From positions 88,835-152,834 of the forward strand of contig CAZINT010000004.1 in the NCBI GenBank assembly GCA_964540825.1: a stretch of 64,000 nucleotides of DNA, read 5' to 3'. Shown piece after piece: positions 10,350-47,979 of this stretch; the stretch's first letter is position 1, and the number at the start of each line of letters is the position of its first letter. A program made the position numbers and the translations under genes. The stretch is from an uncultured Gammaproteobacteria bacterium (GTDB lineage: Bacteria; Patescibacteriota; Patescibacteriia; Magasanikbacterales; GWA2-37-8). The notes under the pieces are model-generated. The model worked only from the letters and a program-made list of their open reading frames with translations. It was not told the DNA's origin and did no database searches.

Positions 10350-10423
10350 GGGCCTTTAGCTCAGCTGGCTAGAGCGCTTCCATGGCATGGAAGAGGTCAA
10401 GGGTTCAAGTCCCTTAAGGTCCA
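10350..10423 (+). tRNA. tRNA-Ala (anticodon GGC)
   Basis: Cloverleaf folds by hand: acceptor GGGCCTT/AAGGTCC with G3:U70 alanine identity pair, D stem GCTC/GAGC, anticodon loop aTGGCat, T loop TTCAAGT; CCA not encoded. Confidence 0.85.
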
Positions 10424-10425
10424 CA
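10382..10425 (+). repeat. attL: 44-nt 3' half of tRNA-Ala (direct repeat copy 1)
   Basis: atggcatggaagaggtcaagggttcaagtcccttaaggtccaca identical to 19266-19309. Confidence 0.85.
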
Positions 10426-10554
10426 CTTTCGGCTTACGTTAGCCACTCTGTAGAATAAACTTCAAAAATACATTCAGCCCCCGACCCCTTTCGTCCAAAA
10501 TGCGGTCGTCGGCTCATGATACTGCAAGCAGATTTTTGCAGTATTTTTTGTTCT

Positions 10555-11448
10555 ATGAGTATCGAGTTATTATGCCAAAAATTCTGCGAATACCTTTCCT
10601 ATATTCGCGGCTTCGCACCGACCACCATCATCCGCTACAAGATGGTGCTAAAGCTGTATACCAACTTTGCCAAGATTACTACTATAGAGGAAGTAACCGA
10701 CGATAACACCCGTGATTTCTTCTACTTTGGCCGTACCGACCGTCGGTGGGCCTCAAATTCGTTCATCACCTACCACAAAACCCTGGTTGTTTTCTTCCGG
10801 TGGTGCGTAGAGCACCGATATATGGCTAAAAACCCGATGGACGACATCGAGATACCGAAGCTGCATAAGCGGTTGCCGCCGAAACTGACTAAACAGGACT
10901 CGCTGCGGCTACTGGAGGTGGTCTATAACTACCCGTATCACTATAGGTTTGAGCGCTACCGCAACCATGCGATCTTTGCTACCTTCCTTTTCACTGGTAT
11001 AAGGCGTAAGGAGCTAATAAATCTCAAGTTTACCGATGTTGATCTGCAAAACCTATCTATCTTCATCAACCAAGGCAAGGGTGGTAAGGACCGGGTACTG
11101 CCGATTCCCCTTACCCTGGCCGAAAGCCTCCGGCGCTACCTGGAGGAGCGGAAGCGGTTAAAAAAGACGTGTCCGGAATTCTTCGCATCCCTGTTTAAGG
11201 ACCAGGGGTTCACTACCAGTGGCCTCAAACACCTCGTTGACCGCTTCGTACCTGCCTCAAAAATACAGTTCAATATCCATCGGTTGCGGCACACTTTCGC
11301 CACTCTCATGCTGGAGGGCGGATGCGATATTTTCTCCCTATCTAAGCTTATGGGACACAGTGATATTAAGACCACCACCATTTATCTGGCCGCCAGCCCC
11401 GACCATTTAAGGGGGCAGATTATGAAGCATCCATTAAATAATATTTAA
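10555..11448 (+). CDS. Tyrosine-type site-specific integrase/recombinase (island integrase 1)
   Basis: C-terminal catalytic HRLRHTFAT...GH...Y signature (R-H-R-Y family); ORF opens at 10516, 10555 chosen as more typical N-terminus. Confidence 0.85.
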   Translation: MSIELLCQKFCEYLSYIRGFAPTTIIRYKMVLKLYTNFAKITTIEEVTDDNTRDFFYFGRTDRRWASNSFITYHKTLVVFFRWCVEHRYMAKNPMDDIEIPKLHKRLPPKLTKQDSLRLLEVVYNYPYHYRFERYRNHAIFATFLFTGIRRKELINLKFTDVDLQNLSIFINQGKGGKDRVLPIPLTLAESLRRYLEERKRLKKTCPEFFASLFKDQGFTTSGLKHLVDRFVPASKIQFNIHRLRHTFATLMLEGGCDIFSLSKLMGHSDIKTTTIYLAASPDHLRGQIMKHPLNNI

Positions 11449-11506
11449 CTCTATTTGCCAAATTCACCTCTTTGCCTTAGAATAGTTTAAAGTCTGTTTT
11501 CTTTCT

Positions 11507-12247
11507 ATGCCAAAATCCTACAAGCGCAACTACTTATCAAGCGTCATTTTTAGGCTTGATTTTTTTCAAGATATAGCGATAGGAGAACTTCGTGAATATA
11601 GTAAAAAAATTAAATCTATTTTACCAATTCGCGAAGAAAAGGAGGGCGTTTCCGGAATGATTAATCTTGATTTTACAAGTGGTGATGTGAGACAAGCAAG
11701 TAGAAAAATCTCTACATGGCTTTTTTCTAATAAGAATAAAAATAAAAAACTAGAAGTTGGTTTAAACTACATATACTTAGAATATACAAACCACTCATAT
11801 AAAAACTCTTTGGAACTTCTTTCTGATATTAATGCATTAATTTTTCCTTTTCTTGAAAGCTACGAAATTGGCACAGCTCGCAGAGTTGGCTTGAGGTACA
11901 CAAACGAAATAAATTTAAACGAAAAGAACCCTCTCGATTGGAGTAAATATATTAATAAAAAATTAATTGGTGGTTTAGACTTTGGTTCTAAAAAAATAGC
12001 ACGCTCAATGGGTCAGGTTATCTTAAAAGAAGAAAATGGTGATCTTGTTTTTAACTTTGGTATGTGGAACAAAGACTATCCAAATCAAATCTTAAATAAA
12101 GAATTTATTCTTGATTTTGACTGTTATTCAAATCTAGGAATCTCTAGAGATAAAATTATTGAGAGAGTTAAAGAATACAACAATATAATCGAGGGTTTAT
12201 TTGAAGACAGTATAACAGATAACTTTAGAAAAATACTTAATAAATAG
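11507..12247 (+). CDS. Hypothetical protein (island cargo; N-terminus YxxNYLSSVIFRLDF reminiscent of TIGR04255-type conserved hypotheticals)
   Basis: 246-aa ORF, very AT-rich, Lys/Asn-rich; family assignment is memory-based and weak. Confidence 0.45.
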   Translation: MPKSYKRNYLSSVIFRLDFFQDIAIGELREYSKKIKSILPIREEKEGVSGMINLDFTSGDVRQASRKISTWLFSNKNKNKKLEVGLNYIYLEYTNHSYKNSLELLSDINALIFPFLESYEIGTARRVGLRYTNEINLNEKNPLDWSKYINKKLIGGLDFGSKKIARSMGQVILKEENGDLVFNFGMWNKDYPNQILNKEFILDFDCYSNLGISRDKIIERVKEYNNIIEGLFEDSITDNFRKILNK

Positions 12248-12445
12248 CTGCCATGACAACCATAGACAGTGGAACCCTAAAAGCAAGTTACGCGGATTTT
12301 TCTAAATTCAACTCCAGCAGAAGCCCCGTAACAGGAAGCTTTCCTGGGAAAAATCTAGAGAGCACAAAAGACCACAACGCAGACTACAATGTTTTTAAAG
12401 GTTCTTATTCATACCCTATAAAAAGATCACGCTCAGAAAAAATCG

Positions 12446-13063
12446 TTGTGTATGTTCGCAAGCAAGATTAAGTCGCAATATATTAAGCTTAGAAAAAGCA
12501 GATTCTGCCAAGGTGACATACTCAGAGATATCTACATAAGTTTTGGCTCAGATCTGGGAGAATCAGACAAGAAGCAGCTTGAAAGACATTACTTGCCCTA
12601 CTGCATAATAATGACCCAAGATTGCGACCTTAACTCTGACCATGTAGAAAGAATAAAAAATAGGGGCCACGATAAATATTTGCAAGCGATTTTGCTATGC
12701 CCCGCTTATCAAGAAGATTTGTTTTTTGCTGGTACACATATAGAAAACTGGCAAATGCAACAAATGTCTTCAAAACTAAAAGATAGAATAAAAGAAAATA
12801 ATTATTTTGAACGGTACCACCACATTGAGGGCGATCACACATCTGCTATTCCAAATCTTGTAATTGATTTTAAGCATTTTTTTACCGTTCCTCGTGACTT
12901 AATTTATAAAGACCGAAAAAAAATCTATCTTATAACTCTAAATGAACTTTTTAGAGAGAGGTTGTCTCAAAGATTTGCCAACTACCTATCACGGTTTGGC
13001 TTACCAGATTTAAAAATCAGAACAGACAACCAAGCCCTCTCTGTTCCACAGGACTCCCCCTAG
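12446..13063 (+). CDS. Hypothetical protein (island cargo)
   Basis: 205-aa ORF with conserved-looking QGDIL and IIMTQDCDL motifs; upstream 72-aa ORF 12253-12471 overlaps by 26 nt in another frame (possible frameshifted single gene). Confidence 0.4.
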   Translation: MCMFASKIKSQYIKLRKSRFCQGDILRDIYISFGSDLGESDKKQLERHYLPYCIIMTQDCDLNSDHVERIKNRGHDKYLQAILLCPAYQEDLFFAGTHIENWQMQQMSSKLKDRIKENNYFERYHHIEGDHTSAIPNLVIDFKHFFTVPRDLIYKDRKKIYLITLNELFRERLSQRFANYLSRFGLPDLKIRTDNQALSVPQDSP

Positions 13064-13153
13064 AGAAATCCACATGTAAACAAGGGTTTGCCTAATTTAA
13101 GATTTAAAGGCTGTGCAGTCTTAAAATACCTCATTAAGGATGGGGTGTTTTTA

Positions 13154-13996
13154 TTATTGCACTACTGCAAAACGATAGGGAGGAAAGGGCTCTTCCTTGT
13201 TAGGATTTTTTATAATGGCTAGTGATGGGCCAGTCTTTAATAACAAAGAAAGTACGAGCACCTCGTGAGTAAATCCATTTATCTCATTAATTATTCTGTT
13301 TAAAAAAACACTTACTTCCTCTGGAGTAGAGCCATGAATAATATATTGAGGTGTTACCTGCTGCGTTACATGTTGAAAGGTTATATTCGAAACATTTTTT
13401 AAGCCTCCGTGATGTACAGGGGCATCTCTAAGCAATACTATATAAGAAATATATTCAATTCTATCCTCGATAAATTTTATTAAACTAATCGAGTTTAACT
13501 TGTGTCTTTCAGGAAGGTTGTTTTTTAATTGTTCTATTATACCTCGACCGCTCTCTTCCTTTCCGTTTTCCTTATTCTTTTGTTTATTCCAGCCTCTAAA
13601 TTTCAGATCAAATAAGGGATTAAAGGTCTTTGCTAAGGAATCTAGCGCAGCCTTAATTTGCGTTAAAACCGCATCAATTTCGCCATTTAAATCAGGTGAA
13701 TGCAAAGCCTGGTTCGTATTAGTTGGAGCATTTGAACATTTACTTTTAAAATCATTTATAACTTTTTCTTTCTGTAATAAATATTTTCTTCTATGACTAT
13801 TCGCTTTAAATAAAGCGTCGGTCACTCCTCTTACATGGTCAAAATATAAGTCATGTAATTTTTTATCTGCTAGTATAAAATCTCCTACCTGCAAGCCTAT
13901 TATCATACTTAGGGTGTTATCCAAAATTTCTTTGTCTAAAACATCCTGTGGTTCAAATAAGCTGGTTAATACAAAATTTTCAATTGGGTTTTGCAT
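13154..13996 (-). CDS. Hypothetical protein with R-x4-H-H-G-G (HEPN-like) motif
   Basis: 280-aa ORF; LLRDAPVHHGGL near C-terminal third; otherwise no recognisable domain. Confidence 0.45.
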   Translation of the reverse strand: MQNPIENFVLTSLFEPQDVLDKEILDNTLSMIIGLQVGDFILADKKLHDLYFDHVRGVTDALFKANSHRRKYLLQKEKVINDFKSKCSNAPTNTNQALHSPDLNGEIDAVLTQIKAALDSLAKTFNPLFDLKFRGWNKQKNKENGKEESGRGIIEQLKNNLPERHKLNSISLIKFIEDRIEYISYIVLLRDAPVHHGGLKNVSNITFQHVTQQVTPQYIIHGSTPEEVSVFLNRIINEINGFTHEVLVLSLLLKTGPSLAIIKNPNKEEPFPPYRFAVVQ

Positions 13997-14229
13997 AAAA
14001 TTTTAATTGTAGCTGTTGTGTAAATTAACTATTGCTTTCTTCTAGAGCATACAGTATTCTATATTTGCTGCCTATATTAATCAAAATAACCCTTTCACGG
14101 GCGACTGTTTCTATAGCCAATTGTGGCTAGAGATGGACAGTCGCACCTCCACAATTGGAGCCCGTAAGGGTTTTGATTAATGTGGGCAGCAGGTCGGCTG
14201 TCCTTTTTTATTTCAGCCCTTAAATACCT

Positions 14230-15183
14230 ATGTCTATTACAAAACTTAGTACCTGGCGAACTACATTAGGAATTGGTGTTGTTTTATCCCTACTTACTAT
14301 TGTAGGATGCGCGACCACGCCTACGTCCTCCATTGGTACGGATGGAACCTCGACCGCTATAGAGAATGATACCTTGTTGGCTGCAACCACAGCTAAAGTG
14401 GAATCTATAGATACCTCTAAGGATCAAAAACTGTCGGCCACAACGCCCACACAAACAAAAACTACGGATCAGCGAAAACCGACAACAGATACACCTACAA
14501 AACCGACCACTCCTCAGAACGATCTCTACACAGTTACCAAAGTCGTAGATGGCGACACTATCGACGTAACCAAAGATGGAAAAACCCTTCGTGTCCGGTA
14601 TATCGGCATGGATACCCCCGAAACCGTACATCCAAGCAAAGGCGTGCAATGCTTCGGTAAAGACGCTTCCAGCAAGAATAAGGAACTAATACTAGGTAAG
14701 CAGGTACGCCTTGAAAAAGATGTCTCTGAAACTGATCGTTACGGTCGGTTCCTCCGGTATGTCTATCTAGGTGACACTTTCATTAACTTAGAGCTAGTAA
14801 AGCAGGGTTACGCTACTGCCGCCACCTTCCCACCTGACGTTAAACACTCACAGGACTTCGTAGCAGCTGAGCGTGAAGCCAGAGAAGCCAAACGTGGCCT
14901 GTGGGCCTCCTGTAAGTCTACAGAGGCTACCAGCAGCCCTAAAACGACCACCACAAACCAACCAACCGCCTCAAATCCAACTCCGGCACCCACACCTACA
15001 TCTCCCACACCTAATGGCTGCACTATTAAAGGCAATATTAGTACTAGAAAAGAGAAAATTTATCACCTACCAGGGTGTGGCTCCTATACCAAGACTTCGA
15101 TCGACGAGAGTGCCGGAGAGCGTTGGTTCTGTACGGAGCAACAAGCGGTACAGGCGGGGTGGAGAAAAGCGGAAAACTGCTAG
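14230..15183 (+). CDS. Secreted lipoprotein nuclease, staphylococcal-nuclease (SNase/thermonuclease) family with YncB-type C-terminal domain
   Basis: Lipobox LLTIVGC, Thr/Pro-rich linker, SNase motifs [26 protein letters not shown]; C-terminal [23 protein letters not shown]...[21 protein letters not shown] as in Bacillus YncB. Confidence 0.8.
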
Positions 15184-15264
15184 AACACCATAAAATTATA
15201 GAGAAAAACAGGGCAAACACCCTGCTTTTTTCTTATTTAAAACATCTTAAAAGAATCATACTAT

Positions 15265-16557
15265 ATGATATACTCCTATCATATGAATGATCCAATTCGT
15301 CGTAAATTAACCGGGGAACTATCTATAAGCGCTGACTATAAAAATAACGAATCTACAAAATCTGTTGTTTTTCGTCGTTTAGTTGAAAAAAAATTTGTAG
15401 AAAGTATTCCCAGGGAAAAACTAGAGGAAATGATTCGGAACGATCTTAAAAAAGTTTCTATCACACCTGTAAATGGCATATTTAACGCTCACCAGTTATT
15501 TCACTATACTAATTCTGATTTTTTAAAAGATTTTGACTTTGGAAACACCTTGATTCAAGCTCATATACCATATTGCCTTCATTTTCCCAATCATTACGAA
15601 ATAATTGTAGATATTCCTGAAAAAAAACTAGAAGCCCTTGTTATCTTTGAAAAAATCTGGACGAGCCGCGCCCAAACAGAAGACAAAAAGTCAGATACCG
15701 TTGATTTCTTTGCGGAAGACTGCGTAACTTATTTTAAGGATAGTATTATCCAGACCCCTCAAATACCTTTATCCGCTCAAGAGGGGTGGGAGTCTCTTTT
15801 TACAGGAACGAACATAGAAAAAATGAGTGACCAGAACGGCATTTTTCGTTTTACAAGAGTTCTTATCCAGTTTGATACCAATTTTCCGCAAGATATGAAC
15901 CAGGGCGACTACAAATCTTTGTTGCCACGAGTCGAGGAAATAGCACTTACCGCTATTAACCGCGTAATTGATGTATATCGCGAGGTCACAAATGAATTTT
16001 TCATAAGAAGACTTGGAAGTTTAAATATAAATTTAATTTATTTTATTCCTAAGAATGAAGGTTTTTACCTACTTCCTACCAATATTGAAACAGCAAAGAT
16101 TAACCGATCAGGCAAAGAAATTGAAGAAATATCAGCTAAATTAGAGGCGGGACACAAACCAGAAGTTTACAAGTTACTTTTATTTAACGCATATAGTTCT
16201 TTTGAAACAAAGGATTACACATTGGCTATAGTAGAATCATTCCAGTCTCTAGAAATTTTTTTGGAAAATTATTTAGTAAATCTTTTCAAAGTAAAAAATA
16301 TTCATAAAAAAGAATATCGTAAAATCCTCAAAAAAAACTGGAAGACAAAAGATAGATTAACCGAAGTGCTCAAAAATCTTATTGGGGTGTCTCTCGATAA
16401 ACAACTAAATATTTGGCCTAAATGGTGTGCTCGCTACGATCAAACTCGTAACAGAGTAATACACGGAGGCAAAGAACCATCACCGTTAGAAACCAAGGAA
16501 ACACTGGAAATTAACCAGAAAGTTATTGAATGGCTAAACTCAATAACGACTAAATAA
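15265..16557 (+). CDS. Hypothetical 430-aa protein with C-terminal HEPN-like R-N-x3-H motif (candidate abortive-infection/toxin RNase)
   Basis: C-terminal WCARYDQTRNRVIHGGKEP fits the common RNxxxH HEPN signature; large uncharacterised N-terminal region. Confidence 0.45.
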   Translation: MIYSYHMNDPIRRKLTGELSISADYKNNESTKSVVFRRLVEKKFVESIPREKLEEMIRNDLKKVSITPVNGIFNAHQLFHYTNSDFLKDFDFGNTLIQAHIPYCLHFPNHYEIIVDIPEKKLEALVIFEKIWTSRAQTEDKKSDTVDFFAEDCVTYFKDSIIQTPQIPLSAQEGWESLFTGTNIEKMSDQNGIFRFTRVLIQFDTNFPQDMNQGDYKSLLPRVEEIALTAINRVIDVYREVTNEFFIRRLGSLNINLIYFIPKNEGFYLLPTNIETAKINRSGKEIEEISAKLEAGHKPEVYKLLLFNAYSSFETKDYTLAIVESFQSLEIFLENYLVNLFKVKNIHKKEYRKILKKNWKTKDRLTEVLKNLIGVSLDKQLNIWPKWCARYDQTRNRVIHGGKEPSPLETKETLEINQKVIEWLNSITTK

Positions 16558-16571
16558 CATCTTCAAATCAT

Positions 16572-17366
16572 ATGGTTGTAAATAGTCGTAAATTAAAAAA
16601 CGCTATCTCAAATAATATAAAAAATTACTTTGCCAAGGATAAAACGGTTTTTGATAACCTCAATTCCCTATTCAACCTTTTGTTTGACCACCCGGTTTAT
16701 ATTGAACGAGCTAAAAGGGTGCGGGGTATTTTTCTACTTCCAAAAGACACTGGCCTGTTGTCAGGTGAAGAAGCGTTGGTGTGGGAAAACGATAATGGAG
16801 ATAAATTAAAAAAATTGCGTGACGCCGTCACAAAACTCCTAACTGGTTTTGCTATTCCTGAGGCTTTTCGGGACCGTGTTTTTTATTTTACTTATGACTA
16901 TATTATATCTAAAAATAGCATCCTCTCTTTGTTAGTCGAAAATTTTGATAGCCCAAACCAGAAAGATGAGGGATACAAACGTGCCCCCAAACTACTTAGC
17001 TTCCGCACCGTTCACACCTTACCTGACCGTGAATTGAATAAATATTTGTTGGACACCAACGCCTTATACCTTCAAATAGGCCCTGGTATGAACTTAGCAA
17101 CACTGCAAAAAGTCTACACGGAAGTAATTATGAAAAATAAAGAACAGCTTTTACCGCTTGAGGCACCGAGTCCAGAGGAAAAAGCGCGACTGATCTGGCG
17201 CATGCGAATGGAAAAATTTAGACCTAAAAAAATTATTGAAGTTTTGAAGATAAAGTATATTCATGAGCCAATAAAAATCGACCACCACTTCGTCAAAACA
17301 AATACTTACCGCTACACCAAAGCACTTCAGACACTCAAGATGTTTGATCCAAAAAAGTATTTATAA
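16572..17366 (+). CDS. Hypothetical protein (island cargo)
   Basis: 264-aa ORF 14 nt after previous gene, followed by clean terminator. Confidence 0.45.
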   Translation: MVVNSRKLKNAISNNIKNYFAKDKTVFDNLNSLFNLLFDHPVYIERAKRVRGIFLLPKDTGLLSGEEALVWENDNGDKLKKLRDAVTKLLTGFAIPEAFRDRVFYFTYDYIISKNSILSLLVENFDSPNQKDEGYKRAPKLLSFRTVHTLPDRELNKYLLDTNALYLQIGPGMNLATLQKVYTEVIMKNKEQLLPLEAPSPEEKARLIWRMRMEKFRPKKIIEVLKIKYIHEPIKIDHHFVKTNTYRYTKALQTLKMFDPKKYL

Positions 17367-17367
17367 A

Positions 17368-17396
17368 AGAGCTTGCTAAAAAGCTCTTTTTCTTTT
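17368..17396 (+). terminator. Rho-independent terminator
   Basis: AAGAGCTT-gctaaa-AAGCTCTT followed by TTTCTTTT. Confidence 0.65.
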
Positions 17397-17500
17397 AACA
17401 AGTGTGCCAATATTTTTATCGGCTGATTTTTGTTACCCTAGGGTCAGTGTTTGCACGATAGCGACCACAATCTCATGTCCATAATGTCCTAGTTAAAAAT

Positions 17501-39329: not shown

Positions 39330-39910
39330 AAGAGCCTATATATAATGAGTAATTTGTTCTTGAGAAAGTATAGCATAGTTTTGTCGACTTTAGAATGTTT
39401 TTTTCACTGGAGCGCGGGTGTATAAAAAATAATAAGAACCTTGTCATGAAGAGCAGAAAAAATTTGACTGTTATCAACTATTTTTATGAAGTTTTTTGTT
39501 CTAACAATACAACCACTGCAAAAGATCAAAAGGTGAAGTGATAACGGCAAAAGTCCACGACCGCCCCACCTATCTCCTTTGTTCTCTACCCCTGCTGCCA
39601 GGCTTATCATGGCGCTTACATATGCTTCGAAGTACCGCGCAAAATTCTCCCTGTCAGATTTTTGGCAGCACACCGTGGCTCTTACTCTTTTCTACTTTTA
39701 AAGTAGTGCTATGTAACTACCTTTGAACCCAGCTAAGCGTAATTTTCTGATTTTCTTCGACTATTAACCTCTGAATATACACTTTATTATTTTTGTCAAT
39801 AATAATATCGCATTATTTAGCTTTAATTTTGTTTATTATTAGCCATATTTTATATTTATTGTCAGAATTATTGACACATATTTGACGGTTCGGTATACTA
39901 CAAAAATACT

Positions 39911-40630
39911 ATGGAACTCGCCTTCGCACTTACCCATTTAGGCCTAACACCCAAACAAGCTGACGTTTACCTGGCTTTGCTTCAGGCAGGCAGTGCGTCG
40001 GTCGCTCAATTGTCAAAACGAGCCGATACGAAACGCCCAACCACTTATTTGATTTTAGAGGAACTGCGTGCCAAGGGACTAGCCACCATTACACCAGGCA
40101 AACGAATTGTCTACACGGCCGAATCTCCAGAACGACTGGCTGAAGAGGAACAGAGAAGAAGCAATCTTTTAAAGGCTAAGATTCCTGAGCTAGCCGCTCT
40201 CTACAACTCCAAAAAGGAGAAACCGAAGATCCGTTACTACGAAGGCGCTGATGCTGTTATCACTCTTTATCGCCAGATATTCAATAGTCCAGAAATCGAT
40301 ATGTTCGGATCCATTATTACTATTGATCCGGCAGTGTTCAAAACTATATGGCCCTGGTTAGAAAAATTCGTTAAAGCCAAAAAACGAATTCGAGATTTAG
40401 TACCCCACGACAACAACTCATTTGAATTTGCTAAAAAACGTAATTCTGAATTTCACCAAATAAAAATTACTCCGCGCGAAGCTGAATTTCCAACCGACAA
40501 TATTATCTTTGATAACAAATTAGCCATTTTTTCTTACAAAGATGTGCCGCTTGCAGTAGTTATCGAAAGCGAGGATGTTGTCAAAACCTACCAATCATTG
40601 TTTAATCTTGTTTGGGCCAGTCTGAAATAA
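39911..40630 (+). CDS. TrmB-like HTH transcriptional regulator
   Basis: N-terminal LGLTPKQADVYLALLQAGSASVAQLSKRADTKRPTTYLILEELRAKGL winged-helix; paralogous architecture to 44241-45020. Confidence 0.65.
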   Translation: MELAFALTHLGLTPKQADVYLALLQAGSASVAQLSKRADTKRPTTYLILEELRAKGLATITPGKRIVYTAESPERLAEEEQRRSNLLKAKIPELAALYNSKKEKPKIRYYEGADAVITLYRQIFNSPEIDMFGSIITIDPAVFKTIWPWLEKFVKAKKRIRDLVPHDNNSFEFAKKRNSEFHQIKITPREAEFPTDNIIFDNKLAIFSYKDVPLAVVIESEDVVKTYQSLFNLVWASLK

Positions 40631-40713
40631 GTGAGTTTGACAAAACACTTTATTTAAAATAAAGTGTTCCACGGGGGAACAAAAAGTTTCCCGTGAAACA
40701 TTTCTAATTTTAT

Positions 40714-41073
40714 ATGCTATCACTTGATTTCATAGCAGGCCTCGTTGCCGGAGAGGGTTCGTTCATGTGGATTAAACAAGGAGGAAACGAAATTCCTGTT
40801 TTTCAGTTAAAAATGCATGCATCTGAGCGCTCTTTATTTGAAATGGTTAAGGAAACTCTGGGCTTAAAGGAAAAGATTTATGAATATAATCATCAAAACC
40901 GTCATTACGTGGTAATTTTGGTACGTAAAAGAACAAGTATTGAAGATACAATTATTCCCAGCTTTGAAAACCGCCTCTACGGGCTTAAAAAAATTCAATT
41001 CGATGAGTGGAAAAATAAATTCTTTGAAAGAAAAACACTCTATAAATATAAAATTAAAAAACGGCTAACTTAA
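40714..41073 (+). CDS. Free-standing single-motif LAGLIDADG homing-endonuclease-like protein
   Basis: LDFIAGLVAGEGSF LAGLIDADG motif near N-terminus, ~119 aa typical of homodimeric I-CreI-type enzymes; own TTGACA promoter. Confidence 0.7.
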   Translation: MLSLDFIAGLVAGEGSFMWIKQGGNEIPVFQLKMHASERSLFEMVKETLGLKEKIYEYNHQNRHYVVILVRKRTSIEDTIIPSFENRLYGLKKIQFDEWKNKFFERKTLYKYKIKKRLT

Positions 41074-41279
41074 GCCGTTATTTTTATTTTTGTATACAAT
41101 AGTGTAGACATTTATCCACTTACTAGCGACTTATACACTGGCTTATCCACAGTTTTGTGCACTTTTACATAAAAATAAAAACACCCCTGATTGTATAGAG
41201 GTGTTTTTAGAAGTGGCCGAGCGCAATCCAAAATATGGAAAGGCTCGGCCGAAAAGGAACGGCGCGAAGGCCGGCGTAG

Positions 41280-41831
41280 CTATGGGAACGTGACGAGGCT
41301 GATGACCTTGTAGCCGTCGAGTGCTTGCCGTCCGCCGCAGGACTCGATCTCGAAGAGGAAGAGGAAGCCGGCGACGATGCCGCCGAGCCTCTCAACGATC
41401 TTGGCCGTTGCCGCGGCTGTACCGCCGGTAGCGAGGCCGTCGTCGACAATAAGGACCCGCTGGCCCACCTCGATTGCGTAGTCTGGCATCTCGATGGCGC
41501 TCGCGCCGTACTCGAGGCCGTACGACTCACGGACGAGCTCGGCGTACTTGCGCACCGGTATCTTGCCGGCCTTGCGCACCATGACAGAACCCTTGCGACC
41601 CCACTGAGAAATGGGCTCGCCGAAGATAAAGCCGCGGGCGTCGATCATGGCGACCAAGTCGAAGCCGATGCCCGCGAGCTCGAGCTGGCGCTGCATCTCG
41701 CGGAAGCAGGTCTCTTTGGCCGCGGGGTTCCGGAGCAGGGGGCTGATGTCACGGAACACGATGCCCGGCTGCGGGAAGTCCGCGATAGGTTCGAGGAACT
41801 GAGACAGGTAGTGAGCTGTTGAGCGGTTCAT
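41280..41831 (-). CDS. apt: Adenine phosphoribosyltransferase (type I PRTase); GC-rich
   Basis: PRPP-binding VLIVDDGLATGGT motif, 183 aa. Confidence 0.85.
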   Translation of the reverse strand: MNRSTAHYLSQFLEPIADFPQPGIVFRDISPLLRNPAAKETCFREMQRQLELAGIGFDLVAMIDARGFIFGEPISQWGRKGSVMVRKAGKIPVRKYAELVRESYGLEYGASAIEMPDYAIEVGQRVLIVDDGLATGGTAAATAKIVERLGGIVAGFLFLFEIESCGGRQALDGYKVISLVTFP

Positions 41832-41847
41832 GGTCGGTGGTCTCCTT

Positions 41848-42915
41848 TTACCGATGATCCGGGGAGCTCCAGGCCTTTATGATGGCGCTGAGGCTGGCGT
41901 CGTTATCGCTGCGCATCGACTGGTAGAGCGCCTCGCTGAGCAGCTCATCGAGCGGCAGCACTGTGAGCCACTCGCTGTTACGAGCACAGTACTCCTGGTC
42001 GCGCGGAATGGACTCGGTGATGAACACCTCGGCGCCGAGCGCCTTGAGCCGTTCCTCAGCAGAACGCGGAAGGGACAATGGATCGCTACCCTTGTCCCGC
42101 GAAGGAGAGAAGACACCGTGAGTTGCCGCGATATATGTCTGGCGAATACCCTGCTGCTTGCCGACGGTGACCGATGCCTGAAGCGACTTGGCAGTGTCGA
42201 TGAGATCATCGATGTAGACCGCATCCTTGCCATCGACCTCGCCTTCACCGGTGAAGTAGGTGATCTCCGCCTCGTTGGCGCGCGGACGTCGCTTGCCAAA
42301 GTTGTAGACCTTCACGGCTCCATCGATCATATCAGCGAAACGTCGCGCACGGGGCAAACCGCCATCGTCGGTCGAGATGACAACGAGGCTACGATAGTTG
42401 CCCGCATACCGCTCGCGAAAGTAGCGAGCGAAGACGAGGGCACCCGGCAGGTTGTCGGCAGGCCTCGAGAAGAAGCCCTGCTCCTGATCGGCGTGGAAGT
42501 CCATCGTCATGACGTTCTTGACGCTGTCACACAGCTCGAGCATGTCGGCCACGTCGCGTGCCGAGATCGGCTCGCGTCCTTCGGCCTTGCGATCCTGCCG
42601 CATGTACGGCAGATAGGGCAGGACGAGGAAAATGCGGTCGACCGAGGCGCGGTGGAGCGCCTTAATGGTCAAGTAGAGTCGCATGAGCTGCTCGTTGGGG
42701 TTCGGATGCAGCTCCCAGAAGAGGTAGACCTCCTGACGACGCACAGTCACCGGGATCATCGGCTTGCCCTCGCCGTTGGCGAAGGCGATGTAGTTGACGG
42801 TCGCCGCACGAATCGGTTCGCCGATCTGACGGAGACGCTCCTGGATACGATGCACGAGCGGGGCCATACCCTCGGAGCACAGAATAAGCCGGGGTGCACT
42901 GATCATCTTTACCAC
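41848..42915 (-). CDS. prs: Ribose-phosphate pyrophosphokinase (PRPP synthetase) with N/C-terminal extensions; GC-rich
   Basis: Collinear Prs motifs: FANGE, LPYLPYMRQDRK, DFHADQEQGFF, KRRPRANEAE, YIDDLIDTAKSL. Confidence 0.8.
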   Translation of the reverse strand: MVKMISAPRLILCSEGMAPLVHRIQERLRQIGEPIRAATVNYIAFANGEGKPMIPVTVRRQEVYLFWELHPNPNEQLMRLYLTIKALHRASVDRIFLVLPYLPYMRQDRKAEGREPISARDVADMLELCDSVKNVMTMDFHADQEQGFFSRPADNLPGALVFARYFRERYAGNYRSLVVISTDDGGLPRARRFADMIDGAVKVYNFGKRRPRANEAEITYFTGEGEVDGKDAVYIDDLIDTAKSLQASVTVGKQQGIRQTYIAATHGVFSPSRDKGSDPLSLPRSAEERLKALGAEVFITESIPRDQEYCARNSEWLTVLPLDELLSEALYQSMRSDNDASLSAIIKAWSSPDHR

Positions 42916-42949
42916 CTATTTCCTTGTTGTTCGTTGCGTTTCAGCAATT

Positions 42950-43459
42950 CTAGAACTGAGCCATGGCCGCAAGTATTGCATCAGCGATGACTCGCTCGCG
43001 CTTGAGGCGGCCTTGGCTGAAGATACTCTGCAAATCCTGGTGATCCGCACCTGGATGGGTCTCACAGTAGATCTTGCCCGCAGTCGTGGTCTTGAAGCCG
43101 CGCTTGCGAGCAATGTGGATCAGGTACGTCGGCACCTGGGTGCCAACCGACCAGACGCGCACTGTCTTGCCGGCCCGGTTACGGATAATGACGCAAGCAA
43201 CATCGTACCAGCGGCGCGCCAGGCACTGTAGACCGCTCTCAATAGCGATCCAGTAGTCAGCCTTGGGGCAGGCCCGAACGATCGCCTTCAGTCGATTACA
43301 TGCGCCGCGCTCGGTCTCAGTCGCACCAACCGGATTATCGCTGACGAGCGATTGAGCCGGGAAGCTGCGAACACTGTCCTTCGGGCAGGCAAGCTTGGCT
43401 GCGGTAATCTTGGGGTGACTCTTGGAAGACACAGCCACAAGAAGCTTTTTTCTTCTCAC
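42950..43459 (-). CDS. Inosine/xanthosine triphosphatase YjjX-like (DUF84, Maf/Ham1 superfamily); GTG start; GC-rich
   Basis: Collinear similarity to E. coli YjjX (VAVSSKSHPKI..., ETERGACNRL, ADYWIAIESGL); AAGGAGAG RBS 4-5 nt upstream of GTG. Confidence 0.6.
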   Translation of the reverse strand: MRRKKLLVAVSSKSHPKITAAKLACPKDSVRSFPAQSLVSDNPVGATETERGACNRLKAIVRACPKADYWIAIESGLQCLARRWYDVACVIIRNRAGKTVRVWSVGTQVPTYLIHIARKRGFKTTTAGKIYCETHPGADHQDLQSIFSQGRLKRERVIADAILAAMAQF

Positions 43460-43475
43460 GGGCTCTCCTTGTTTC

Positions 43476-43530
43476 CGATATGTAGTGCAGCAGAAGCATG
43501 ATCATCAAACTGCCGCTGCACTACATATCG
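43476..43530 (-). promoter_or_regulatory. Perfect 16-bp stem / 23-nt loop hairpin in 5' leader of yjjX-prs-apt operon
   Basis: CGATATGTAGTGCAGC...GCTGCACTACATATCG lies between promoter and RBS. Confidence 0.55.
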
Positions 43531-43591
43531 TTTGGTTGTGAATGAACGGTCAGTAAAACCACGGACTTCAGACAGGCCGGAAAAACAGCCA

Positions 43592-43620
43592 ACTATAGCC
43601 GACAATCTTATGTTTGTCAA
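43592..43620 (-). promoter_or_regulatory. Sigma70-type promoter TTGACA-17-TATAGT driving yjjX-prs-apt
   Basis: Reverse strand reads ttgacaaacataagattgtcggctatagt. Confidence 0.55.
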
Positions 43621-43800
43621 TGCTAAAGCATAGAGTTTTAAAACTCCTGCCTCCAGCATTTTTATTGTCAAAGAGCAGTTTGCGAGCAACTGACGTGCCA
43701 GCGCTCTACCCAGTTCAAAAACCGGGCAGAGAAATGGTCCGGTCGAGCATAGAAACGTCGACCGGAAAAGTTGAAAAGGCACACACAAAGCAAAACCGAA

Positions 43801-44067
43801 CTACCGGTCACCCGACCACGTGCGGTTCACCTTCCGCTTCTTGTCGAGCGCTTCCTTGATCCGGAGCGGCAAGTCCTTCGGCGGCACATCGTTCTTCTTA
43901 CCGCACACGGGGCACAGGAACTCGTACCGAGCTGCCTGGTTATCATAGCGCTCCGGCGCCATAAGATCTGCCTCGTCCACGAGAAGCGTCGCGGCGCAGT
44001 CCTTTTCGTTGCAGACGTACTCGTGACTCCAAGGATTCTTCCAATTGCCTTCTTTGAGGATCTTCAT
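43801..44067 (-). CDS. Small zinc-ribbon protein (CxxC...CPVC); GC-rich
   Basis: GGAGAAG RBS 4 nt before ATG; two Cys pairs. Confidence 0.45.
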   Translation of the reverse strand: MKILKEGNWKNPWSHEYVCNEKDCAATLLVDEADLMAPERYDNQAARYEFLCPVCGKKNDVPPKDLPLRIKEALDKKRKVNRTWSGDR

Positions 44068-44240
44068 GGGTCTTCTCCATTGTGAAAGAGCGGTTCGTCA
44101 GCACTTCGCTAACAAGACAACTCTATGACAACAGCGATTTTATTTATATAATTTTTGGTATATTTTTTGACTAATTAAATAATTTACTTTAAAATAAGGC
44201 AAATATATATAAATATTTACTACGTAAAATTTAGTAGTTT

Positions 44241-45020
44241 ATGTCTTTAATTAAAATTACCGCTCTGCAAAGCAAAGAAATTAATGAGGTACTGGGACGT
44301 TTTGGTTTAAACGATAAGGAGCGCAAGGTCTATCTAAAATTACTCACCTTTAAGCCCACAACACTCACACCACTCGCACGAAGTGCCGGATTACCCGTGA
44401 CTACGGTACAGGCCGTGCTGGGGAGGCTAGTCGATTTTGGTGTTGTCAACGTAACAAAGCGCAAATCTCGTCATGTCTACGAGGCAGCTGAACCTGTTGT
44501 TCTTAAACAAATCATGGAACGTAAAGTTGAAGAAGCGACAGAAATAATTCCCTTTTTAAAATCACTCCAAGGGCAGAGTGAGGGTAAGGCAAAAATTCGT
44601 TTGTACTACCGCGAACGTATGAATGATATTTTTTTGGAAGCACTTGAAGCAAAAAATAAAACACTGTATGAAATTGTGGCCGGTAAAGAAATTCAGGATA
44701 TTTTTGGTGAACGTTTTCACTTTACAAGGCGGCGGGTGGAAAAAAAGATTTTTCTCAAAAGCCTGCGTGTAGAAAGTAGGGAAATAAAAAAATACTCCCG
44801 CCTCAGTCATGTGCGAGAACTGCGTGAAGCTAAATTTTTAGCTCGTGAATTTACTTTTCAGGCCTCGATTTTTTTCTGGGATGATAGCGTTGCTTTTTTT
44901 AGTACCCGCGAAGAAGGCTTGGCCTGGGTTGTTGAAAGCAAAGTTATCCGAAAGATGATTGAACAAATTTTCAATCTCTGCTGGAGTCTGGGGAGACCAA
45001 TGGAAACGGCTCAATCTTAA
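44241..45020 (+). CDS. TrmB-like HTH transcriptional regulator (paralog of 39911-40630)
   Basis: N-terminal winged helix (KVYLKLLTFKPTTLTPLARSAGLPVTTVQAVLGRLVDFGVV) and similar C-terminus (IFNLCWSLG vs LFNLVWASL). Confidence 0.6.
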   Translation: MSLIKITALQSKEINEVLGRFGLNDKERKVYLKLLTFKPTTLTPLARSAGLPVTTVQAVLGRLVDFGVVNVTKRKSRHVYEAAEPVVLKQIMERKVEEATEIIPFLKSLQGQSEGKAKIRLYYRERMNDIFLEALEAKNKTLYEIVAGKEIQDIFGERFHFTRRRVEKKIFLKSLRVESREIKKYSRLSHVRELREAKFLAREFTFQASIFFWDDSVAFFSTREEGLAWVVESKVIRKMIEQIFNLCWSLGRPMETAQS

Positions 45021-45045: not shown

Positions 45046-45119
45046 ATTTAAAACTTGGTGGACCTAGGCAGAATCGGACTGCCGCTCCGGCAATGCGAAT
45101 GCCGTGTCATACCACTAGA
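45046..45119 (-). tRNA. tRNA-Ala (anticodon CGC), CCA encoded
   Basis: Reverse strand GGGCCTATGGTCTAGTGGTA...CGGCA-TTCGCAT-TGCCG...GGCAG-TCCGATT-CTGCC-TAGGTCC-A-CCA; G3:U70 pair present. Confidence 0.8.
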
Positions 45120-45139
45120 CCATAGGCCCGTTTTTTCTT

Positions 45140-45166
45140 AAATCTTATTCGTTCAATGCTGTGCCC
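45140..45166. repeat. 27-nt direct repeat copy of tRNA-Arg 3' end plus trailer (second copy 45265-45291)
   Basis: cgttcaatgctgtgcccccgaagggaa occurs twice 125 bp apart. Confidence 0.7.
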
Positions 45167-45276
45167 CCGAAGGGAAATTTCACGCGTCGTTTCACTCCTT
45201 CACGAAAAGGGCTTCCGCCCTCTCGTGTGCTCTCCCGGGCAAAAGTGGGAAACTCCCGTTTCCCAAACCCTTCCCG

Positions 45277-45348
45277 TTCAATGCTGTGCCCCCGAAGGGA
45301 ATTGAACCCCTATCTCACCCTTAGGACGGGTTTGTTCGATCCGTTGAA
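45277..45348 (-). tRNA. tRNA-Arg (anticodon CCT)
   Basis: Reverse strand GCCCCCG-TA-GTTC-AACGGATC-GAAC-A-AACCC-GTCCTAA-GGGTG-AGAT-AGGGG-TTCAATT-CCCTT-CGGGGGC-A; one A:G mismatch at top of anticodon stem. Confidence 0.65.
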
Positions 45349-45557
45349 CTACGGGGGCAACCACTTTTCGGGATAGCTCGTGGGCGTCATGGTAGCGTAA
45401 AATACTTCGTTTGGCAAGCAACTATATTGTCTACTAAAAAAATAAAAATCCCTTTGGTAAGGAATTTTTATGCAACGCTTTACTCTCAACATTAAAGAGA
45501 TACTGTGGAGAGAAGAGCGGCGCCTGGGGGACAGGCGCGCGAGAGAATGGTCAGTGG

Positions 45558-45956
45558 CTACGGTGCGCAGACCTCAGGCGCAAAGGGTCTCGACGACGTA
45601 CGCGACGTCCGGAGCGTCGGGGCGTCGGGGCCCTCGATCTCACGAATGAAGTCGTCACCCCCCAAGTCGAGGGCTGCGGCTGCGGCTGCAACCCTCTCGT
45701 CGTGCTCGAAGAACCAGCACTTGGGGATCGCCGGGAGCGTTCCCATATCGACCACGGTACCCTCCTCCACCGAGTCCACTACGGAGGAAGCAGGCAACGG
45801 TAGGGGCGGGGCCGTGCGGCCCTGGAGACGATCGAGCGCAGCGCTAAACGTCGCCCACGGGACGAGCCCGGTGGGGACGGGCTTGAGCGGAGCGCGGCGC
45901 GGGTAGCCCCGCAGATCATGCAGCGCGAAACAGGGCGGATCAGAAAAGAACGGCAT
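45558..45956 (-). CDS. Hypothetical protein, GC-rich compositional outlier
   Basis: GGAGGG-6nt-ATG; the opposite-strand ORF (45505-45906) shares wobble positions and is low-complexity, so the minus-strand frame is preferred. Confidence 0.4.
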   Translation of the reverse strand: MPFFSDPPCFALHDLRGYPRRAPLKPVPTGLVPWATFSAALDRLQGRTAPPLPLPASSVVDSVEEGTVVDMGTLPAIPKCWFFEHDERVAAAAAALDLGGDDFIREIEGPDAPTLRTSRTSSRPFAPEVCAP

Positions 45957-46219
45957 TGGACACCCTCCAAATAGACGGTTACTTAGCAATTCAAACGATT
46001 TAAACAGCTAATTGACCGCTTATTTGGGGGATCCGTTATTTGAACTTTAAAACAAAAACCGGCCTTTCGTTCCGGCCGGACGCCGCAGCATAGCATATTT
46101 TAAGTCTTTTGTCAAGGGTGTTTTGGGAATATTTGGCTAATATTACTCTTTTTTTCCTTCTTTTGCTTGTCGCCCGGACCGAAACAAGCTACAATGGGGC
46201 TTACTAACTCTCTACATAT

Positions 46220-47388: not shown

Positions 47389-47844
47389 TCAGCGGAGCGT
47401 GCAGTTGATGTACCGTCCAGGGGTTTGCGGGCTGTAGCTCACGGACAACCCGTTTGCCGCGACACTCCGCGTCAACAGCCAGTGCCGGTAGCGGGGCGGC
47501 AGCGCCTCACCGGTCAGGGTACCCTTCACCATCAGGTAGCAGTTCAGCTCCGGTCCGTCGTAGGTGGGGATGATGTGGACGAAGACGCTGAAGCGCTCCG
47601 GCGGACCATGCATGATTGGCCCAAACTGGTTCCCCGGGAGCGGCCAGCGCAGCTCGCACGCTGACACCCGAGTGCTTCCCGGGACCACCAGGAAGCCAAG
47701 GCGTGCCCGCTCTTTTCCGCATCCGTCATCAGCCTGAGGAAGTGTGAAAGGGAGGCCGTCCGCGAACACCTTCGGCACATCGTTGCCAAGGTAATTCGGT
47801 CCGACGAGCGACAAGGCAACAAGGGCAAGACTTTTGGCCTGCAT
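47389..47844 (-). CDS. Secreted hypothetical protein, GC-rich compositional outlier
   Basis: GGAGAA-4nt-ATG; signal peptide MQAKSLALVALSLVG; longer ORF to 47907 lacks RBS. Confidence 0.45.
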   Translation of the reverse strand: MQAKSLALVALSLVGPNYLGNDVPKVFADGLPFTLPQADDGCGKERARLGFLVVPGSTRVSACELRWPLPGNQFGPIMHGPPERFSVFVHIIPTYDGPELNCYLMVKGTLTGEALPPRYRHWLLTRSVAANGLSVSYSPQTPGRYINCTLR

Positions 47845-47979
47845 CCGATTCTCCAAAACAAGTTGGTGGACGGACAGTATGTACACACAACACATCACTT
47901 TTGTCAACGCCTTGACTTTTCCTTACCTATCAGCTATACTGTGCGTATTCGCTCTCAAATTTAGTCTCTTACTTATACT

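Follow-up and report, generated by a model that had tools for sequence, protein, structure and literature searches.

Descriptions of LAGLIDADG genes in bacteria of the Candidate Phyla Radiation (CPR) have to date concerned the cargo of rRNA gene insertions (PMC11270868). The 64-kb stretch of DNA analysed here (contig CAZINT010000004.1, positions 88,835 to 152,834 of the forward strand; hereafter the window) encodes a LAGLIDADG protein which stands free on the chromosome of a member of the Patescibacteria, between two TrmB-like regulator genes (TrmB1 and TrmB2), and which is preceded by its own promoter and two short palindromes. With a probability of roughly 0.55, a homodimer of this protein binds the palindromes as an autoregulator, with nuclease activity being optional. 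No description of the family to which the protein belongs was found in the searchable literature.

Among the homodimeric endonucleases, I-CreI and I-ShaI, the latter derived from CPR rRNA insertions (PMC11270868), have the LAGLIDADG_1 domain, the core fold and a Glu at the presumed metal-binding position in common with the window protein. The likeness extends to the homodimeric state expected for the window protein, the occurrence of a palindromic site of ~20 bp nearby and, in the case of I-ShaI, the same bacterial group. The window protein is, however, shorter (119 aa as opposed to ~165-180 aa) and is encoded outside an intron or rRNA gene, while its family is orthologous and syntenic across many species, with ~40 % of members lacking the catalytic residue yet being under purifying selection, and its palindromes adjoin the gene intact, without being interrupted by it. 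The I-OnuI family is the closest by sequence and fold, with the GEGSF and G-x-K motifs common to the window protein, but the I-OnuI types are two-domain monomers of ~300 aa, which occur in fungal mitochondrial introns and recognise asymmetric sites. The WhiA/DUF199 proteins, domesticated transcription regulators, are host-retained LAGLIDADG scaffolds without catalytic residues, and WhiA regulates its own gene (PMC3384342). The window protein differs in being a bare single domain without a helix-turn-helix (HTH), so that the beta-sheet itself would have to bind DNA. I-TevI acts as an autorepressor, occupying without cleavage an operator which overlaps the promoter of its gene (PMC3384342), but is a GIY-YIG enzyme of a phage intron, whereas the window gene is a chromosomal LAGLIDADG gene, many members of whose family are predicted to be cleavage-dead. 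Finally, in the LAGLIDADG maturases, such as the bI3 maturase and I-AniI, the catalytic acid has been lost or is dispensable and a second function is kept (PMC3384342). These maturases are encoded inside the intron which they splice, whereas the window gene has no intron and has its own promoter and terminator. The features of the LAGLIDADG unit, including a conserved non-coding element (CNE2) downstream of the open reading frame (ORF), are as follows.

40637..40665, plus strand: sigma-70-type promoter of the LAGLIDADG gene, TTGACA-17-TAAAGT
40665..40681, no strand: palindrome P1, TGTTCC-ACGGG-GGAACA (TGTT-N9-AACA), beginning at the last base of the -10 box
40685..40700, no strand: palindrome P2, AGTTTC-CCGT-GAAACA, ending 13 nt before the ATG
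40714..41073, plus strand: LAGLIDADG ORF, 119 aa, single domain, free-standing (Pfam PF00961, E=6e-9)
41060..41079, plus strand: terminator hairpin over the LAGLIDADG stop codon, homologous to the hairpin downstream of a third palindrome copy (P3) in the related loci L077 and L078
41091..41151, plus strand: CNE2, consisting of the palindrome TGTATACAATAGTGTAGACA (41091-41110) followed by three DnaA-box-like repeats

The LAGLIDADG protein and its inheritance

A structure model of the LAGLIDADG ORF, generated from 33 homologs with a predicted local distance difference test (pLDDT) score of 93.7, has the canonical core fold with its elements in the expected order. Using Foldseek, the model could be matched to enzymes of the I-OnuI family (E=5e-9, 27-32 % identity) and to I-AniI (E=4.5e-8), and comparison of the family profile with the sequences of the Protein Data Bank (PDB) identified the LAGLIDADG endonuclease 4efj (E=4e-19). 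Only the LAGLIDADG_1 and LAGLIDADG_3 domains were detected in the ORF by Pfam analysis, with neither the WhiA family nor an HTH domain being found. The best match in an exhaustive profile search, P0167 (231 aa), comprises two tandem family matches and represents a natural two-domain version. No intron, intein or rRNA host of the gene was evident, as an Rfam scan at E<=1 over 39.3-48.3 kb found two tRNAs only, and neither a group I intron nor an rRNA gene was found by Rfam at gathering thresholds across the window, the related loci not having been included in the Rfam scan. The TrmB-like genes, the LAGLIDADG ORF with its own promoter and the GC-rich block described in an earlier note on this DNA, as well as the lack of an intron or intein host, were thus confirmed by the Pfam, Rfam and promoter analyses, all at the positions listed here.

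The motif of the window copy, DFIAGLVAGEGSF, incorporates a glutamate (E14) at the catalytic position. In the profile alignment, E14 coincides with a Glu found in each of the two 4efj domains, as part of the conserved GEGSF/AEGSF motif. We take this Glu to be the catalytic, metal-binding residue of the I-OnuI-family enzymes, and E14 is assigned on this assumption. With this residue retained, the window copy could still cut. P1, P2 and the perfect palindrome of L077 would be candidate targets for site-specific double-strand cleavage, for which targets of 14-40 bp are expected. Elsewhere in the family, the catalytic position is occupied by A, G, C, Q, N, T, K or I in 9/20 species, 10/44 database proteins and 23/46 metagenome loci, with the catalytic Glu having been lost in ~40 % of the family members, in several separate clades. 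The earlier note had named loss of the catalytic acid as an observation that would speak against an endonuclease; this loss is seen in the latter members of the family and not in the window copy, where E14 is kept.

The ratio of non-synonymous to synonymous substitution (dN/dS) ranges from 0.05 to 0.21 in all measurable LAGLIDADG pairs. It amounts to 0.05 between the window and L024, a strain from another sample, 0.08 for the Cys-type lineages (where synonymous sites are saturated), 0.17 for the Gln-type pair and ~0.2 for comparisons of Ala- or Asn-type with Glu-type members. As judged by these ratios, the LAGLIDADG gene is under purifying selection, including in the lineages with a dead catalytic site, and the low dN/dS values despite the lost residue indicate that a function independent of cleavage is maintained. 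The family alignment and structure model further place W19, Q22, F30, Q31, K33, Y58 and Y65, which are invariant or nearly so, on the beta-sheet. This sheet is the DNA-contacting face in the LAGLIDADG fold, and the near-invariance of its residues argues for one conserved nucleic-acid target across the family.

A protein search revealed 46 homologs of ~120 aa, and 14 clusters were obtained at E<=1e-30 in the exhaustive profile search. Together, the ortholog loci in species-representative genomes (19) and metagenomes (49) make up ~70 Patescibacteria loci, in which the LAGLIDADG gene is nearly always found near tRNA-Ala(CGC) and tRNA-Arg(CCU), in three different gene orders. Group A, to which the window belongs, has the order surface proteins, p309, p209, TPR762, LAGLIDADG, a variable stretch, tRNA-Ala(CGC), tRNA-Arg(CCU), RmuC and holA. 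In group B, the LAGLIDADG gene is preceded by bactofilin, tRNA-Arg, phosphoribosyltransferase, tRNA-Ala and ROK kinase genes and is followed by glycosyltransferases, a THUMP methyltransferase and then S6/SSB/S18, while in the third order both tRNA genes are located downstream of the LAGLIDADG gene on the same strand. TPR762 adjoins the LAGLIDADG gene in 18 loci, and a Mantel test of the LAGLIDADG against the TPR762 distances gave r=0.46, a value reached by 0/5000 permutations. The LAGLIDADG gene thus appears to be an old resident which is mostly vertically inherited. Carriage of the family by phages or other mobile elements was rejected on the basis of a search of viral contigs, in which one weak match (30 %) was obtained among 2.9 million. 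One viral contig matched the CNE2 palindrome; it contains neither homologs of the 21 queried window proteins (LAGLIDADG included) nor a tRNA, and the match was judged to be due to chance rather than a sign of phage carriage.

The suggestion in the earlier note that this may be a relocated or domesticated copy can be divided accordingly. Domestication is the better-fitting option in view of the synteny, the dN/dS values of 0.05-0.2 and the frequent loss of the Glu, whereas relocation from an rRNA intron finds no support, with orthologs being present at the same position in ~70 loci.

Promoter palindromes and competing explanations

The orthologous loci, including those in the group B alignment, contain a TTGACA-17-TATAAT-like promoter at the same position, and the placement of the palindromes between the -10 box and the ATG is constant across loci. 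P1 is found at the equivalent position in most orthologous loci. It is followed 3-4 bp later by P2, which has the family consensus TGTTTCACGTGAAACA (i.e. TGTT-N8-AACA) and usually ends within ~25 nt of the ATG (2-32 nt across loci). Many loci of group A have the third copy, P3, starting 2-3 bp beyond the stop codon; it is not present in the window copy, where the ORF runs into the hairpin. Group B has the same palindrome layout with other inner bases, and the palindromes are kept equally in lineages with intact and dead catalytic sites.

These palindromes are closely associated with the gene. P2 is the sole match with <=1 mismatch to the family palindrome in the 64-kb window. In a first set of 24 sequences (296 kb), 37/61 TGTT-N8/9-AACA matches lie <=130 bp from the ends of the ORF, a zone which makes up 1.9 % of the sequence, and such palindromes were observed in 44/49 loci of a second set. 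The full TGTTTCACGTGAAACA-type palindrome was found only beside the LAGLIDADG gene or its remnant in ~300 kb, where only loose TGTT-N8/9-AACA matches occur outside the LAGLIDADG flanks. On the basis of the above, a separate LAGLIDADG family can be defined, the members of which are very small, free-standing, chromosomal, inherited with their neighbours, selected even without the catalytic residue and tied to fixed non-coding motifs.

The length and symmetry of the palindromes would fit a LAGLIDADG homodimer site, and their position would fit that of a repressor. In the proposed mechanism, the beta-sheet saddle of the homodimer would bind the 16-20-bp palindromes, and occupation of P1 and P2 in the transcription start region would lead to repression of the protein's own gene. 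Sequence-specific binding would be the selected activity, with cleavage being optional and lost in ~40 % of lineages. If the palindromes are bound in this manner, the family would provide a minimal natural model of a meganuclease scaffold turned DNA-binding regulator, which would be of interest to both homing-endonuclease evolution and meganuclease engineering.

A number of points weigh against this proposal. Both binding and cleavage of the palindromes by the LAGLIDADG protein are predictions, a rigid homodimer should not be equally suited to the N8 and N9 spacings, and retention of the gene by the host is not accounted for by autoregulation alone. The correlation with host divergence is weak (Spearman 0.15, p=0.07), truncated LAGLIDADG copies exist (L068 and L074) and the gene is dispensable, having been deleted in the two nearest species, with this pattern of loss and truncation also fitting a decaying selfish element. 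Stable leader hairpins in some orthologs make an RNA role possible. Among the neighbouring genes, the C-terminal halves of TrmB1 and TrmB2 (~residue 90 to the end) match no Pfam family, and the proposal does not account for the occurrence of a GC-rich operon beside a host-like regulator.

The state of the locus in the two nearest species is informative in this regard. L077 is the closest relative (91 % identity for TPR762 and 93 % for TrmB2), followed by L078 (74 % and 87 %, respectively), and both keep TrmB1, the GC-rich operon, TrmB2, the tRNA genes and RmuC. A LAGLIDADG ORF was not found at the locus in either species, and the promoter and P1 of the window copy are absent from both. The remnant in L078 consists of P2, ~70 bp of leader plus the last codons, P3, the hairpin and CNE2, and that in L077 of one perfect 18-bp palindrome, the hairpin and CNE2. 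The loss of the gene and the remnants left in its place indicate that the gene is dispensable and the locus dynamic. Both flanks of the L077 palindrome are of the downstream (P3) type and ACTAA microhomology repeats are found where the deletion ends, such that the loss looks like an ordinary microhomology deletion. Excision by cutting and rejoining at the flanking palindromes was rejected as the less simple explanation of these flanks and repeats.

An alternative, which is considered unlikely, is that of a still-selfish free-standing homing endonuclease in a cycle of gain, decay and loss, where Glu-type members would cut the perfect TGTTTCACGTGAAACA in genomes without the gene and be copied in by repair, with the other members decaying. 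All stages of such a cycle can be observed at one orthologous site, namely intact Glu-type genes, intact genes with a dead catalytic site, truncated genes (L068 and L074), an internal-deletion remnant between two palindromes (L078) and an ORF-less site with a perfect 18-bp palindrome (L077). Furthermore, the window and L024 differ at 17 of 130 positions within the LAGLIDADG ORF (40761-40890), beside a 2-kb tract free of differences, which suggests allele exchange, and both nearest species lack the promoter and P1 present in the window copy. However, the clades with dead catalytic sites are old, as their synonymous sites are saturated, and they are under strong purifying selection (0.08-0.17). 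Perfect palindromes are located beside Glu-type genes in L009, L010 and L034, where they would, as targets, lead to self-cutting of the chromosome. To judge from the synteny and the partly parallel divergence of gene and host, descent was mostly vertical, and the single L077 palindrome fits an ordinary deletion.

It is likewise doubtful, though conceivable, that the family stands between a selfish nuclease and a host factor. Glu-type members would then cut the perfect TGTTTCACGTGAAACA in gene-less genomes, while the members with dead catalytic sites and the imperfect or N9 promoter palindromes would be restricted to binding, either as an autorepressor or in the protection of the site against active relatives. 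Should such a transition hold true, this would be the first bacterial regulator with a bare LAGLIDADG homodimer saddle, without an added helix-turn-helix, as its operator-binding module, and the family would represent a natural series of homing-endonuclease domestication.

It appears improbable that the protein binds RNA and acts in trans in the manner of a maturase, serving, for instance, ORF-less group I introns of the rRNA genes. In favour of such a role, LAGLIDADG maturases are likewise known to lose the catalytic residue while the protein remains under purifying selection (PMC3384342), single-domain LAGLIDADG genes are widespread in the rRNA introns of this bacterial group (PMC11270868), and the fold matches that of I-AniI, which is both an endonuclease and a maturase. 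Yet no intron or rRNA gene was found in the window using Rfam, the strongest conservation is on the DNA-binding face, the gene-linked DNA palindromes would be left unaccounted for, and the loss of the LAGLIDADG gene in L077 and L078 would demand that the intron be lost as well.

Similarly, there is little probability that the palindromes are RNA hairpins (leader or terminator), or the sites of another factor, with no relation to the LAGLIDADG protein. Compared with shuffled controls, the leader RNA folds more stably in the window (z=-4.6) and L009 (z=-4.2), the N8 and N9 spacings are natural for loops of 4 and 5 nt, and the palindromes persist in L077 and L078 after loss of the ORF. However, folding is weak in L012 (z=-1.4) and L006 (z=-2.3), the predicted folds differ between orthologs, and an A-A mismatch (TGTTAC...GAAACA) recurs in the middle of the stem of the upstream palindrome in many lineages; the differing folds and recurrent mismatch favour a DNA operator over an RNA role. 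In addition, the arm sequence itself is conserved beyond pairing, and the full palindrome is confined to the gene or its remnant.

Downstream of the ORF, the CNE2 palindrome occurs in its strict form in 9/13 group A loci checked in the first set, with a degenerate copy in L003 not being counted, and in 27 metagenomic loci. The DnaA-box-like repeats of CNE2 are TTATCCACT (41112), TTATACACT (41131) and TTATCCACA (41143), with the last being the only perfect copy of this sequence in the window. A replication origin at CNE2 was ruled out, given that the cumulative GC skew falls steadily across the window with no switch, and a Pfam scan of 30 window ORFs, which did not extend to some eight ORFs in 12.4-20 kb and a small number past 59.8 kb, revealed neither dnaA nor dnaN. 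In L029 and L030, the downstream palindrome TGTATACACTAGTGTATACA occurs twice, at +64 and +367 after the LAGLIDADG ORF, on either side of tRNA-Ala(CGC), and it may be associated with the tRNA genes no less than with the LAGLIDADG gene. Further repeats surround the LAGLIDADG unit in other relatives. In 9/9 group B loci (L008, L012-L015 and L017-L020) the unit is bracketed by a conserved 11-bp inverted repeat, TTTTACGACRC ... GYGTCGTAAAA, located ~150 bp upstream and 60-130 bp downstream of the ORF and enclosing a DnaA-box-like AAAAGTTATCCAC, the promoter, P1, P2, the ORF and the terminator. In L016, a direct repeat of ~45-55 bp containing the palindrome pair is found on both sides of the ORF (~2350-2400 and ~2855-2900).

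The GC-rich operon and the two TrmB genes

The remainder of the locus comprises the two TrmB genes, an operon for phosphoribosyl pyrophosphate (PRPP) and purine-salvage functions, and two tRNA genes.

39911..40630, plus strand: TrmB1, 239 aa (Pfam PF01978, E=4e-14, above the gathering score)
41176..41209, minus strand: AT-rich terminator at the end of the minus-strand operon, forming the left edge of the GC-rich block
41280..41831, minus strand: APRT-like adenine/purine phosphoribosyltransferase gene, 183 aa (PF00156, E=1.7e-5, just below the gathering score)
41848..42915, minus strand: PRPP synthetase (ribose-phosphate pyrophosphokinase) gene (PF13793, E=2e-26, plus PF14572 and PF00156)
42950..43459, minus strand: NTPase_I-T gene (inosine/xanthosine triphosphatase family), 169 aa (PF01931, E=2e-21)
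43476..43620, minus strand: internal promoter (43620-43592) and leader hairpin with 27-nt arms (43476-43530), before the NTPase gene
43801..44067, minus strand: Zn-ribbon protein gene (p88), 88 aa, the first gene of the operon and the conserved partner of TrmB2-type regulators
44068..44240, no strand: divergent AT-rich control region between the operon and TrmB2, with an inverted repeat (44141-44155 / 44201-44215)
44241..45020, plus strand: TrmB2, 259 aa (PF01978, E=1.5e-13, above the gathering score)
45056..45129, minus strand: tRNA-Ala(CGC) (Rfam scan)
45286..45358, minus strand: tRNA-Arg(CCU) (Rfam scan)

The GC-rich block of ~2.9 kb is situated between the LAGLIDADG gene and TrmB2, with the two tRNA genes directly 3' of the latter. 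Its GC content is 0.58-0.65 over ~41200-44100, against 0.455 for the whole window, and the GC content at third codon positions (GC3) is 0.68-0.84 in its genes. The same arrangement occurs in two independent read sets (SRR11567520, 100 % identity; SRR12901024, 98.5 %) and the block occupies the same position in two other species (L077 and L078), and an assembly chimera was ruled out as its source on the basis of these recurring junctions. The locus is a variable slot between core genes, with TPR762 on the one side and tRNA-Ala(CGC), tRNA-Arg(CCU) and RmuC on the other, and it contains three unrelated things: the LAGLIDADG unit, the module of TrmB2 and its operon, and TrmB1. The gene content between the LAGLIDADG gene and tRNA-Ala is different in every relative. 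An integrase-type island at the tRNA was not evident, with no integrase being found in 39.3-46.3 kb and no tRNA-derived repeats bracketing the block.

The real genes of the block, encoding the Zn-ribbon protein, NTPase_I-T, PRPP synthetase and APRT, are all on the minus strand, divergent from TrmB2. By contrast, the public gene calls on an identical contig (L001 10612-12277, corresponding to window 41325-42990) consist of plus-strand ORFs of 165 and 386 aa without domains, with APRT and PRPP synthetase having been missed. The minus-strand genes and the two tRNA genes had also escaped the earlier note. The real start of the PRPP synthetase is probably the ATG giving 352 aa. A 110-aa ORF called in public assemblies (43456-43788) has no Pfam match and no counterpart in L026, L027 or L078. 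It may be spurious in view of the internal promoter and hairpin, although a tblastn match of its translation to L077 (52 % identity over 113 aa, E=4e-26) prevents its dismissal. The segment 43476-43620 may represent an uncharacterised leader element, and another long hairpin is found at the equivalent place before the NTPase gene in L026.

Comparable modules are found at other loci. In L026, a TrmB (72 % identity to TrmB2) faces a small Zn-ribbon ORF, a 73-aa CxxC protein taking the place of the Zn-ribbon protein, followed by NTPase, PRPP synthetase and phosphoribosyltransferase genes, in unrelated flanks (mraZ/rsmH on one side and uvrD on the other) and with no LAGLIDADG gene. The intergenic region between this TrmB and the small ORF resembles the control region of the window by eye. 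The module of L027 consists of a TrmB facing a p88 homolog, PRPP synthetase, phosphoribosyltransferase and NUDIX, while in L080 a TrmB2-type gene is paired with a p88 homolog alone. Homologs of the Zn-ribbon protein adjoin TrmB genes in L027 (41 % identity), L077 (69 %), L078 (77 %) and L080 (46 %). TrmB2 and the block thus form one self-contained module (~41165-45020). The recurrence of the divergent layout elsewhere indicates that TrmB2 belongs to the operon, for which it is likely the local regulator, and the occurrence of the module at other loci, or here without the LAGLIDADG gene (L026, L077 and L078), shows that it is independent of this gene. Nothing like the LAGLIDADG palindromes was seen when the TrmB2/operon control region was read by eye, and TrmB2 was consequently rejected as the factor binding these palindromes.

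Both TrmB1 and TrmB2 share the PF01978 winged helix with the TrmB/TrmBL regulators, and TrmB2 is divergent from its probable target operon. They differ from these regulators in that their C-terminal halves match no Pfam sugar-binding model and the associated genes are involved in PRPP and purine salvage, not sugar metabolism. The module would supply PRPP as well as purine-salvage and house-cleaning functions, presumably under the control of TrmB2. Patescibacteria are generally held to depend on salvage. The GC-rich block can thus be considered a regulated PRPP/purine-salvage module, the genes of which are swapped between lineages and whose public gene calls are partly on the wrong strand.

Such swapping is apparent from the identities of the individual genes. 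The APRT gene (GC 0.64, GC3 0.84) encodes a protein with 79 % identity to its homolog in L078 and 43 % to that in L027, with no match found in L077, while the PRPP synthetase shares 63 % identity with that of L026 and only 31-33 % with those of L077 and L078. To judge from these values, module genes have clearly been replaced repeatedly by distant homologs and recombination is frequent here. When the window is compared with L024, zero differences are found over 2020 bp (41005-43024), a tract covering the LAGLIDADG 3' end, APRT, PRPP synthetase and the end of the NTPase gene, whereas its flanks differ by 2-13 %, with 18 differences in 267 bp of the NTPase gene. This mosaic points to a very recent recombination or sweep of the APRT/PRPP synthetase segment.

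The regulator and control region are of host composition, in contrast to the enzymes (GC3 0.68-0.84), and the same contrast is observed, in weaker form, in the AT-rich genome of L026 (8001-9560). The GC3 of PRPP synthetase and phosphoribosyltransferase is 0.63-0.84 in two AT-rich genomes, and GC climbs along the operon. This GC richness could have arisen through genes being acquired repeatedly from GC-rich donors, or through a recombination hotspot with GC-biased repair. A GC-rich donor could not be named, as the nearest named PRPP synthetase, from Kaiserbacteria, shares 42 % identity. A similar module in L027 (GC 0.55) suggests a GC-rich, Patescibacteria-like source for the block.

TrmB1 and TrmB2 share 26 % identity and fall into separate Patescibacteria subfamilies, both of which have orthologs of their own in other genomes. 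Orthologs of TrmB1 are found in L077 (87 %) and L078 (69 %), and TrmB2, which shares 72 % identity with the regulator of L026, 93 % with that of L077 and 87 % with that of L078, has >120 homologs at 54-93 % identity in a large Patescibacteria family. A third TrmB-family gene (248 aa, 30 % identity to TrmB1) is located between TrmB1 and the operon in L078 (4483-5229). TrmB1 was not found between TPR762 and the LAGLIDADG gene in L002, L005, L006, L009-L011, L021 or L025, and on this comparison it was inserted at this position solely in the sublineage of the window, L077 and L078. The two TrmB genes occur together at the locus only in these three, more distant relatives having neither, and no relative with both genes adjacent was found among the loci compared. 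The genes are thus not the remains of a duplicated locus split by insertions, as the earlier note had supposed. Nor is the endonuclease linked to the block, which occurs without the LAGLIDADG gene in L026, L077 and L078, while the gene occurs without the block in many more distant relatives; that the two adjoin each other is coincidental, the slot beside the tRNA genes being variable.

That the endonuclease moved or captured the GC-rich DNA, with the TrmB genes as the two halves of a split locus, is accordingly very improbable, since only the physical adjacency and an interval to tRNA-Ala that varies in every relative speak for it, and the separate occurrence of gene and block, the dissimilarity of the TrmB genes and the position of the slot at the 3' end of a tRNA gene all speak against it. 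Such 3' ends are classical sites of insertion.

Neighbouring sequences

A 43-bp direct repeat with 84 % identity (45134-45176 / 45259-45301, 125 bp apart) is the only tRNA-derived repeat and does not bracket the block. Its second copy comprises the last 16 nt of tRNA-Arg(CCU) and 27 nt downstream, and the pair resembles what a small integration event at the tRNA 3' end would leave behind. Two more GC-rich islets flank rmuC (45558-45989, GC 0.66; 47389-47907, GC 0.61), each with a minus-strand ORF (143 and 172 aa, respectively) without a Pfam match or a counterpart in related loci. GC-rich islets occur after rmuC in L078 as well. Similar short sequences are present upstream of TrmB1 (39834-39864) and rmuC (46094-46145), namely TATTAGCCA.ATATT and TTTTGTCA, in direct and inverted orientation. 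This similarity could reflect a shared operator or chance.

Further upstream in the window, a tyrosine recombinase/integrase gene (10516-11448) directly follows tRNA-Ala(GGC) (10350-10424), and the sequence beyond it is AT-rich, with a GC content of 0.34-0.39 in most of 11-17 kb. The region 10350-17400 may thus represent an integrated element.

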